In this document: positions 2,334 to 7,219 of the stretch, one piece after another | Layout of the letters: each line of letters starts with the position of its first letter | Numbering within the stretch: position 1 is the first letter of the stretch | IMG/VR virus record: IMGVR_UViG_2627853844_000004 | DNA length: 16,995 nucleotides | Reading direction: 5' to 3' (one strand) | Source of the DNA: a virus | Taxonomy: Duplodnaviria > Heunggongvirae > Uroviricota > Caudoviricetes | Position numbers and translations under genes: made by a program | Notes under the pieces: generated by a model | Seen by the model: only the letters and a program-made list of their open reading frames with translations | The model's database searches: none | What the model was told of the DNA's origin: nothing

Positions 2334-3077
2334 TTACTCCCTGACAGGGTTCGTAGGCCACTCAATATCAGGTGCAGTTGATGTATCAACACGGTTCAGC
2401 AACACCCGATATTTTTTCCAGGCTTCCAGCAATGAGGTTTCTTCCTCCGTTGCGATTTCCAGATCTACAGCATCCTGAAGTGGCGCAATATGCTCACTGG
2501 CTACCTGCATCAGGCTGTTTTTTGTTTCTTCCGCCTCCCGAATCCGGAACAGTTTTTCTGCTTCTGCATCTTTCACCCAGGCTGTACCGTTCCACTTCTG
2601 AAACTCCCCTTCCGGCGATAACCAGGTAACATTTTCCGGTAACGGACCGAGTTCAGAAATAAATAACGCGTCCCCTGACGCTACGTCATAAACCGTTTTA
2701 CCCCGATGATCTTCAACGAGATGCCACGATGACTCATCACTGTTGAAAACAGCCACGAAGCCAGCTGGAATAAGGGTGTTGCGCTGCTTATGCTCTATAA
2801 AGTAGGCATAAACACCCAGCAGCATTTTGGAATAACCGACACGGGCAGACTTCACCACATTCACCTCACGGATGTAGTCGCTGCCCATCGCATTCATGAT
2901 GGCCCGCTGAAAGGGCAGTGTTTCCCAGCGCCCTTCCTGGTATGCGGATTCTTTCGGGAGATAGTAATTAGCATCCGCCCATTCAACGGCGGTCTGTGGC
3001 TCCGGCCTGAACAGTGAGCGAAGCCCGGCGCGGACAAAATGCCGCAGCCTGTTAACCTGACTGTTCGATATATTCAC
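2334..3077 (-). pseudogene. In-frame deletion fusion: terminase large subunit (gpA) N-terminal 103 codons joined to Tfa C-terminal ~144 codons
   Basis: Residues 1-103 ([28 protein letters not shown]...[14 protein letters not shown]) match the lambda gpA N-terminus as I recall it. From residue 104 ([29 protein letters not shown]...[14 protein letters not shown]) it matches the lambda Tfa C-terminus. Junction lies between 2768 and 2769 (minus-strand ...cttatt|ccagctgg...). Corresponds to the K-12 aaaD/tfaD pseudogene pair by recollection. Confidence 0.85.
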
Positions 3078-3502
3078 TCAGCAACCCCGGTATCAGTTCA
3101 TCCAGCGCGGCTGCTTTGTTCATGGCTTTGATGATATCCCGTTTCAGGAAATCAACATGTCGGTTTTCCAGTTCCGGAAAACGCCGCTGCACCGACAGGG
3201 GGATCCCGTCGAGAATACTGGCAATTTCACCTGCGATCCGCGACAGCACGAAAGTACAGAATGCGGTTTCCACCACTTCAGCGGAGTCTCTGGCATTTTT
3301 CAGCTCCTGTGCATCGGCCTGCGCACGCGTAAGTCGATGGCGTTCGTACTCAATAGTCCCTGGCTGGAGATCTGTCTCGCTGGCCTGCAGCAGTTCTTCA
3401 ACCTCCCGGCGCAGCTTTTCGTTCTCAATTTCAGCATCCCTTTCGGCGGTGATGCTGCCAACTTACTGATTTAGTGTATGATGGTGTTTTTGAGGTGCTC
3501 CA

Positions 3503-3778
3503 GTGGCTTCTGTTTCTATCAGCTGTCCCTCCTGTTCAGCTACTGACGGGGTGGTGCGTAACGGCAAAAGCACCGCCGGACATCAGCGCTATCTCTGCTC
3601 TCACTGCCGTAAAACATGGCAACTGCAGTTCACTTACACCGCTTCTCAACCCGGTACGCACCAGAAAATCATTGATATGGCCATGAATGGCGTTGGATGC
3701 CGGGCAACAGCCCGCATTATGGGCGTTGGCCTCAACACGATTTTACGTCACTTAAAAAACTCAGGCCGCAGTCGGTAA
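3503..3778 (+). CDS. insA: IS1 InsA (transposition repressor)
   Basis: 91-aa [43 protein letters not shown]... with zinc-finger-like N-terminus typical of InsA. Confidence 0.95.
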
Positions 3779-4200
3779 CCTCGCGCATACAGCCGGGCAG
3801 TGACGTCATCGTCTGCGCGGAAATGGACGAACAGTGGGGCTATGTCGGGGCTAAATCGCGCCAGCGCTGGCTGTTTTACGCGTATGACAGTCTCCGGAAG
3901 ACGGTTGTTGCGCACGTATTCGGTGAACGCACTATGGCGACGCTGGGGCGTCTTATGAGCCTGCTGTCACCCTTTGACGTGGTGATATGGATGACGGATG
4001 GCTGGCCGCTGTATGAATCCCGCCTGAAGGGAAAGCTGCACGTAATCAGCAAGCGATATACGCAGCGAATTGAGCGGCATAACCTGAATCTGAGGCAGCA
4101 CCTGGCACGGCTGGGACGGAAGTCGCTGTCGTTCTCAAAATCGGTGGAGCTGCATGACAAAGTCATCGGGCATTATCTGAACATAAAACACTATCAATAA
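3697..4200 (+). CDS. insB: IS1 InsB frame (expressed as InsAB' transposase by -1 frameshift)
   Basis: 167-aa ORF in the -1 frame relative to insA. An A6C slippery run (aaaaaac, 3754-3760) lies in the overlap, which is the known IS1 frameshift motif. Confidence 0.9.
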
Positions 4201-4374
4201 GTTGGAGTCATTACCCCTTTCGGCATACCATTTTATGACGGCGGCAGAGTCATAAAGCACCTCATTACCCTTGCCACCGCCTCGCAGAACGGGCATTCCC
4301 TGTTCCTGCCAGTTCTGAATGGTACGGATACTCGCACCGAAAATGTCAGCCAGCTGCTTTTTGTTGACTTCCAT

Positions 4375-4610
4375 TGCACATTCCACGGACAAAAACAGAG
4401 AAAGGAAACGACAGAGGCCAAAAAGCTCGCTTTCAGCACCTGTCGTTTCCTTTCTTTTCAGGGGGTATTTTAAATAAATACATTAAGTTACGACGAAGAA
4501 GAACGGAAACACCTTAAACCGGAAAATTTTCATAAATAGCGAAAACCCGCGAGGTCGCCGCCCCGTAACCTGTCGGATCGCCGGAAAGGACCCACAAAAT
4601 GATAATAATT
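4375..4610 (-). other. Lambda-type cos site (cosQ-cosN-cosB); 12-nt cohesive-end sequence at 4552-4563
   Basis: Minus strand reads ...cgatccgacaggttacg GGGCGGCGACCT cgcgggttttcgctatttatgaaaattttccgg..., matching the lambda right-end/left-end junction and cohesive end as recalled. The region between cosN and the Nu1 start (cosB) is near-identical to lambda. Confidence 0.85.
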
Positions 4611-4762
4611 ATCATCTACATGTCACAACGTGCATCTACGCCATCAAACCACGTCAAATAATCAATTATGACGCAGGTATCGTATTAATTGATCTGCATC
4701 AACTTAACGTAAAAACAACTTCAGACAATACAAATCAGCGACACTGAATACGGGGCAACCTC

Positions 4763-4957
4763 ATGTCAACTAAGAACAGAACCCGCAGAACAACAACCCG
4801 CAACATCCGCTTTCCTAACCAAATGATTGAACAAATTAACATCGCTCTTGAGCAAAAAGGGTCCGGGAATTTCTCAGCCTGGGTCATTGAAGCCTGCCGT
4901 CGGAGGCTAACGTCAGAAAAGAGAGCATATACATCAATTAAAAGTGATGAAGAATGA
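4763..4957 (+). CDS. ylcI: Small prophage protein, 64 aa
   Basis: ORF MSTKNRTRRTTTRNIRFPNQMIEQINIALEQKGSGNFSAWVIEACRRRL... Length and position between the terminase gene and ybcW fit K-12 ylcI by recollection. Function unknown. Confidence 0.55.
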   Translation: MSTKNRTRRTTTRNIRFPNQMIEQINIALEQKGSGNFSAWVIEACRRRLTSEKRAYTSIKSDEE

Positions 4958-5121
4958 ACATCCCGCGTTCTTCCCTCCGAACAGGACGATATTGTAAATT
5001 CACTTAATTACGAGGGCATTGCAGTAATTGAGTTGCAGTTTTACCACTTTCCTGACAGTGACAGACTGCGTGTTGGCTCTGTCACAGGTTAAGTAGTTTG
5101 AATGATTAGCAGTTATGGTGA

Positions 5122-5328
5122 TCAGTCAACCACCAGGGAATAATCCTTCATATTATTATCGTGCTTCACCAACGCTGCCTCAATTGCCCTGAATGCTTCC
5201 AGAGACACCTTATGTTCTATACATGCAATTACAACATCAGGGTAACTCATAGAAATGGTGCTATTAAGCATATTTTTTACACGAATCAGATCCACGGAGG
5301 GATCATCAGCAGATTGTTCTTTATTCAT
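5122..5328 (-). CDS. ybcW: Small prophage protein, 68 aa
   Basis: 68-aa ORF with GGAG Shine-Dalgarno 8-9 nt upstream of the ATG at 5328. Length and neighbourhood fit K-12 ybcW by recollection. Confidence 0.6.
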
Positions 5329-5613
5329 TTTGTCGCTCCATGCGCTTGCTCTTCATCTAGCGGTTAAAATATTACTTCAAATCTTTCTGTATGAAGGTTT
5401 GAGCACGTTGGCCTTACATACATCTGTCGGTTGTATTTCCCTCCAGAATGCCAGCAGGACCGCACTTTGTTACGCAACCAATACTATTAATTGAAAACAT
5501 TCCTAATATTTGACATAAATCATCAACAAAACACAAAGAGGTCAGACCAGATTGAAGCGATAAAAACGATAATGCAAACTACGCGCCCTCGTATCACATG
5601 GAAGGTTTTACCA

Positions 5614-6024
5614 ATGGCTCAGGTTGCCATTTTTAAAGAAATATTCGATCAAGTGCGAAAAGATTTAAACTGTGAATTGTTTTATTCTGAACTAAAACGT
5701 CACAATGTCTCACATTATATTTACTATCTAGCCACAGATAATATTCACATTGTGTTAGAAAACGATAACACCGTGTTAATAAAAGGACTTAAAAAGGTTG
5801 TAAATGTTAAATTCTCAAGAAATACGCATCTTATAGAAACGTCCTATGATAGGTTGAAATCAAGAGAAATCACATTTCAGCAATACAGGGAAAATCTTGC
5901 TAAAGCAGGAGTTTTCCGATGGATTACAAATATCCACGAACATAAAAGATATTACTATACCTTTGATAATTCATTACTATTTACTGAGAGCATTCAGAAC
6001 ACTACACAAATCTTTCCACGCTAA
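5614..6024 (+). CDS. ybcV: Uncharacterised prophage protein, 136 aa (DUF1398 family by recollection)
   Basis: ORF track gives 177 aa from 5491. The ATG at 5614 ([11 protein letters not shown]...) has a GGAAGG Shine-Dalgarno about 9 nt upstream and gives 136 aa, the length I recall for YbcV. Stop codon taa at 6022-6024 abuts IS5. Confidence 0.65.

Positions 6025-7219
<1,195 letters not shown>

Follow-up and report, generated by a model that had tools for sequence, protein, structure and literature searches.

A sequence-intact lambda-type cos site beside the truncated terminase operon of the cryptic prophage DLP12 in Escherichia coli K-12

The DNA analysed here, a window of 16,995 nucleotides, is the DLP12 cryptic prophage of Escherichia coli K-12 as carried by strains of the ER2796/ER3413 type. 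According to the RefSeq annotation of ER3413, the window runs from appY to intD, with DLP12 in reverse orientation. When the whole window was compared by megablast with complete E. coli genomes, 100% identity over 100% of its length was obtained for five K-12 records, namely ER3413, ER2796 and three MG1655 derivatives, and the remaining K-12 strains covered only 95% of it. Window 4215-6024, which includes the cos region, shows 100% identity with MG1655 579184-580993; there, the 12-mer of the cohesive end lies at 580645-580656 on the plus strand, a position at which RefSeq annotates no feature. A search of the cos region against Rfam gave no match.

Several features surround the site. At the window junction 6024/6025, adjoining the IS5 in nmpC, 3394 bp of MG1655 sequence (575790-579183) are absent, and with them an nmpC fragment, essD, rrrD, rzpD, rzoD and borD; as a result, this copy of DLP12 has neither the lysis cassette nor the left part of the patch of homology with lambda. 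This 3.4-kb loss and the IS1 in nohD are both described in the ER2796 genome paper (PMC4444293), which ties the loss to a new IS1A; the junction seen here is at IS5. An Rfam match to IS009 (RF02111; window 2377-2575, minus strand; score 227.8 bits, gathering score 117) falls in the tfaD/ybcY region, to the left of what remains of the terminase genes. Just left of cos lies the ylcI open reading frame (YlcI/YnfO family; window 4763-4957, plus strand). Lambda DNA at about 48150-48340 conserves this sequence, which runs against the direction of the late genes; NC_001416 annotates no gene there. The ylcI paralogue in the Qin prophage, ynfO, occupies the same position relative to the Qin cos.

On the other side of cos stand the remains of a terminase operon (Table 1). 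The ATG of nohD, at 4372-4374, is as far from cos as the start of lambda Nu1, and the 5' fragment of the gene, which stops at codon 53 within the DNA-binding domain, still encodes most of that domain, with residues 20 and 24, which are implicated in cosB recognition. A terS gene with a recognition helix matching the R sites is thus found directly downstream of cos, albeit split by IS1. The 9-bp target duplication (CCTTTCGGC, at 3439-3447 and 4216-4224) shows that IS1A entered nohD at codon 53 by simple transposition, and among the complete genomes searched the IS1A in nohD was present in only five (ER2796/ER3413 and three MG1655 derivatives). Beyond aaaD there are tail-fibre-assembly fragments only. 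The original prediction had described a prophage stripped of all packaging and structural genes, which is nearly correct: the head and tail genes are otherwise gone, but the split nohD, the aaaD fragment and the tail-fibre-assembly fragments persist.

Table 1. Elements of the cos region and the neighbouring terminase remnants of DLP12, with their counterparts in lambda
Feature	Window position	Strand	Lambda position	Remarks
cosQ, packaging-termination element	4587-4593	-	48473-48479	GGGTCCT, identical to lambda; fits RGGNCCY; 17 bp upstream of cosN
cosQ-cosN spacer	4570-4586	-	48480-48496	17 bp, length as in lambda; one substitution, window 4580 (lambda 48486, T to C)
cosN, nicking site	4548-4569	-	48497-16	22/22 identical to lambda; symmetric flanks present
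I2, AT-rich bend between cosN and cosB	4514-4546	-	18-50	Identical to lambda
R3, TerS binding site	4499-4514	-	50-65	AGGTGTTTCCGTTCTT; C53T at window 4511
I1 region, R3 to R2	4456-4498	-		Substitutions at lambda 73, 85, 102
R2, TerS binding site	4440-4455	-	109-124	Identical to lambda; inverted relative to R3 and R1
R1, TerS binding site	4399-4414	-	151-166	CTGTCGTTTCCTTTCT, identical to lambda
nohD 5' fragment (Nu1/TerS homologue), codons 1-53	4216-4374	-		Translation equals lambda Nu1 residues 1-53
IS1A, splits nohD	3448-4215			768 bp; 9-bp target duplication
nohD 3' part	3052-3447	-		RefSeq annotation; about 98% identical to lambda Nu1 DNA
aaaD, pseudogene, 5' fragment of large terminase gene A	2769-3077	-		RefSeq annotation; about 100 codons

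Lambda NC_001416 (47700-48502 joined to 1-350) aligns with window 5366-4215 at 1130 identities over 1152 positions, with one 1-bp gap (98%), a resemblance that is, by alignment, far beyond chance. The part of it at window 4375-4610 corresponds to lambda 48456-190 and contains cosQ, cosN, I2, R3, I1, R2 and R1, so that all subsites of cos are present in the lambda order and spacing. The 12-mer of the cohesive end, GGGCGGCGACCT, is found exactly at 4552-4563 on the minus strand. The 22-bp cosN, GTTACGGGGCGGCGACCTCGCG, occurs once in the 50 kb of L010, the ER3413 locus that contains the window, where none is expected by chance, and shuffled sequence of that locus gave 0 matches. As for cosQ, which we take to be the 7 bp at lambda 48473-48479 that coincide with RGGNCCY, followed by a 17-bp spacer to cosN, its 7-bp definition reportedly goes back to Wieczorek and Feiss, and the spacer is said to tolerate substitutions. 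The spacer C at lambda 48486 is found in phages 1H12, PhiR29_1, Kati and 2H10 as well.

The functional limits of these elements are known for lambda. A length of 7 bp and high conservation have been given for cosQ (Feiss 2015), and papers from the Feiss laboratory place cosQ, cosN and cosB within a 238-bp fragment, lambda 48446-182, which served here as the minimal cos. In the same papers cosN takes up about 22 bp, I2 comprises bp 18-50 and R3 bp 50-65, TerS contacts bp 55-63 of R3, bp 56, 58 and 59 are functional, and I1 separates R3 from an inverted R2. In DLP12, the cosN-R3 spacing is that of lambda, bp 1 to 52 are identical to lambda, and so are the contacted bp 55-63 of R3, the key bp 56, 58 and 59 among them. 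As expected, R2 and R1 constitute an inverted repeat, and the 25 bp between them equal the spacing in DE3 lambda and the other phages aligned. The best match to the IHF consensus (WATCAANNNNTTR) lies at lambda 79-91, or window 4473-4485, and it scores 8/9 in both lambda and DLP12, since the T85A change falls in the unspecified NNNN positions. The arrangement is thereby that of the complex, lambda-type cosB, in which R3, I1, R2 and R1 follow one another, R2 is inverted and an IHF site falls in the interval from R3 to R2.

Over the minimal cos, DLP12 differs from lambda by nine substitutions, at lambda 48459, 48467, 48471, 48472, 48486, 53, 73, 85 and 102, and none of the nine falls in cosQ, cosN, I2, bp 55-63 of R3, R2 or R1. 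The C53T change is within the nominal R3 and outside the contacted bases, and the same 53T is common to 1H12, PhiR29_1 and 2H10. In addition, G138 of NC_001416 is missing from the window (gap between 4426 and 4427, between R2 and R1). The same base is absent from DE3 lambda and from four other phage genomes aligned, and identity values suggest that other lambda records lack it too; the gap is, on this comparison, a peculiarity of the old reference sequence and no lesion of DLP12. The insertion of IS1 lies 184 bp beyond R1 and outside lambda 48446-182. These results bear out most of what had been predicted for the site: the 12-mer is where it was placed, the flanks are conserved with lambda (cosQ, R2 and R1 identical, R3 changed at bp 53 only), the proposed alignment of R3, I1, R2, R1 and cosQ turned up no disrupting substitution in cosN or in the TerS-contacted bases of the R sites, and the IS1 in nohD leaves the cis site untouched. 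Judged by these elements, the DLP12 cos is intact and of lambda specificity.

The same cos is also carried by phages. The record of phage 1H12 (NC_049947) starts at the cohesive end and matches DLP12 without a single difference between lambda 48399 and 186; the 1H12 small terminase matches lambda Nu1 at 180 of 181 residues, the DNA-binding domain being identical. A complete phage genome therefore pairs the exact DLP12 cos with a terminase of lambda specificity. PhiR29_1 (PV340556) shows two differences from the window in the 236-bp span, one of which, at lambda 48472, is within lambda 48446-182. In 1H12 and PhiR29_1 these are the sites of deposited complete phage genomes, whereas the DLP12 cos belongs to a cryptic prophage. 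The C53T change and two changes in I1 are only known to coexist with near-identical TerS in natural phages; a lambda-type terminase should recognise the DLP12 cos.

The site is by no means new. A 3353-bp region of DLP12, 98% identical to lambda, has been described in which cos separates R and Rz from nu1 and A; with a marker in ybcV, lambda-DLP12 recombinants arose about 100-fold more often than recombinants with Rac or Qin, their junctions lay next to cos in 10/19 and right of cos in 3/19, and all the recombinants tested were active (De Paepe 2014, PMC3945230). Earlier, the same patch of DLP12 around cos had been reported, at 3.5 kb, and lambda-DLP12 junctions had been tested by PCR with dedicated 'DLP12 cos junction' primers (Poteete 2004, PMC545071). 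Taken together, the two studies already document the DLP12 cos and its function in a lambda background, and the site is to be regarded as known and ordinary. It is not rare either: the 236-bp cos segment has matches in 4590 of 5426 complete E. coli genomes (85%), with a median of two copies per genome, and lambdoid prophages that have been gutted yet keep an intact cos are common. Its retention looks like a matter of recency, or of recombination with circulating phages, rather than of demonstrable selection.

The reading that best fits these data, to which we give a probability of roughly 85%, is that the DLP12 cos has been left as a relic, intact in sequence and of lambda specificity, beside a terminase operon that is truncated, and that it is presumably cleavable by a lambda-type terminase but with no proper termination of packaging. 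When a phage with such a terminase grows in the cell, TerS (Nu1) and IHF should assemble on R3-I1-R2-R1, after which TerL would nick cosN and leave a chromosomal double-strand end; translocation could then start toward nohD, IS1, appY, ompT, the cus genes and the ent genes. Such packaging cannot end properly, because a second cosQ-cosN 38-51 kb downstream is lacking. The break made by terminase may instead stimulate recombination, DLP12 DNA including cos may be rescued as markers into lambda-family phages, and there would be at most rare defective particles that begin at cos and end in host DNA. We infer the cleavage at the chromosomal cos; if it takes place, the K-12 chromosome has a defined break made by terminase. 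The DLP12 cos accounts for the roughly 100-fold preference of lambda for recombination with DLP12 over Rac or Qin (De Paepe 2014, PMC3945230). Against cleavage of the chromosomal copy it may be said that cutting of the phage cos could by itself produce the recombination hotspot near cos. A bolder and rather improbable extension is that the cos sites of DLP12 and Qin are cut whenever a phage of lambda specificity grows, that they act as programmed break points through which recombination passes cryptic-prophage genes to phages, that they yield rare appY-ompT-cus-ent headfuls or serve as terminase decoys harming the phage, and that repeated gene conversion from passing phages keeps them intact.

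Whether neighbouring host genes could be moved from this site is a separate matter, since the original prediction had seen in it a platform from which a co-resident or superinfecting lambdoid phage might package the adjacent chromosome. In its strongest form, this would make the DLP12 cos the starting point for a cos-directed transduction of the lateral type that moves appY, ompT, cus and ent efficiently. The cis site is indeed intact and of lambda specificity, as that proposal had it. Packaging from it would proceed toward lower window coordinates and enter host DNA, with appY, ompT, envY, nfrAB, the cus genes, pheP, nfsB and the ent/fep cluster in its path, and docL particles of lambda, whose DNA begins at cos and terminates in the bacterial chromosome, were reportedly described by Sternberg and Weisberg. 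Papers from the Feiss laboratory have established, however, that initiation of lambda packaging needs cosN and cosB, that termination needs a downstream cosQ-cosN, and that in its absence translocation is not arrested and the event is abortive. DLP12 has both elements for initiation. For termination, a second cosQ-cosN in the same orientation would be required 38-51 kb downstream, and none was found: within the 50 kb of L010, the DLP12 cos excepted, the cosN 22-mer had no match at up to three mismatches, and a search of 56 kb downstream with the 12-mer, allowing up to 2 mismatches, did not reveal a second cosQ-cosN.

Two 12-mers resembling the cohesive end were considered. One, GGGCAGCGACCA in fepD (L010 42175-42186, plus strand, 2 mismatches), lies +41.5 kb from cos, a lambda-headful distance, and is the only such 12-mer on the same strand; it was rejected as a termination site, being without cosQ and without the conserved CG flank, and such matches are at the chance level. 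The other, with one mismatch, at window 6243-6254 in IS5, was likewise attributed to chance, as about 0.6 matches with two or fewer mismatches are expected per window. Sequencing of virions also speaks on the question. In lambda particles purified from an induced K-12 lysogen, host reads came almost only from attB and about 25 kb on each side of it, with no visible packaging from the DLP12 cos (Kleiner 2020), and excision of DLP12 during lambda infection was not seen (De Paepe 2014, PMC3945230). The lack of a termination site and the near-restriction of host reads to the attB region together make efficient transduction of neighbouring host genes from the DLP12 cos unlikely; what stands of the predicted platform is the intact cis site with its specificity, and with no cosQ-cosN downstream within 56 kb any transduction from it would be inefficient.

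A second possibility, that the cos is a decayed, non-functional look-alike inactivated by its changes close to cosQ and within R3 and I1, is less probable still. Substitutions are denser in the 238-bp minimal cos (about 4%) than over the whole patch (1.9%), and one of them does lie within the nominal R3. Yet all nine are also found in 1H12, a deposited complete phage genome, and cosQ, cosN, I2, bp 55-63 of R3, R2 and R1 are all free of them. Moreover, lambda recombinants with a junction right of cos, which hence carry the DLP12 cos, were active (De Paepe 2014, PMC3945230). The preferred reading, that of an intact relic, has few consequences beyond bookkeeping and calls for no new mechanism. 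It does mean that in K-12 strains used for packaging with a cos-deleted lambda, two lambda-type cos sites of the host remain, those of DLP12 and Qin.

Comparison with known systems places the DLP12 cos close to its phage relatives and apart from the satellites. The literature on Gram-negative PICIs describes cosQ and cosN together with a different cosB and a TerS-redirecting gene, rpp. Like DLP12, EcCICFT073 and its relatives are chromosomal, have no capsid genes and carry a lambda-like cosQ/cosN, which in PICIs is used by the helper terminase; they differ by their distinct cosB, Rpp adaptor, excision and replication, whereas DLP12 has a phage cosB, no rpp and no working replication module. 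That the cos marks DLP12 as a PICI-like satellite hijacking helper capsids for its own mobilisation is accordingly the least credible reading of all, for although an integrase (intD) and a cos share one small element of about 17-21 kb, a dimer of which would fit a lambda head, the cosB is that of a phage, with a genuine homologue of Nu1 behind it, the replication module is truncated (both P and ren are pseudogenes, ren being split by IS3), the excision that helper phages induce in PICIs was not seen for DLP12 during lambda infection (De Paepe 2014, PMC3945230), and neither hallmark of the group, a non-phage cosB with rpp or a helper-activated excision and replication module, is found in it.

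The Qin cryptic prophage carries a second intact lambda-type cos in K-12, upstream of nohA, with cosN at MG1655 1636541-1636562 on the minus strand. It differs from the DLP12 cos in lying on the opposite strand, some 1.06 Mb away, in having G54A instead of C53T in R3, and in being followed by nohA and then stfQ and tfaQ. The two are alike in their identical cosQ, cosN, I2, R2 and R1, and in belonging to defective prophages without head genes. Lambda itself differs from DLP12 by the nine substitutions, all at non-critical positions, by the interruption of nohD by IS1, the truncation of A and the loss of head and tail genes in the prophage, and by the presence of DLP12 cos as a single chromosomal copy with no partner. 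DLP12 and lambda agree in how cosQ, cosN, I2, R2 and R1 are ordered and spaced and in the sequence of these elements, in the distance to the start of Nu1 and in the first 53 Nu1 codons.
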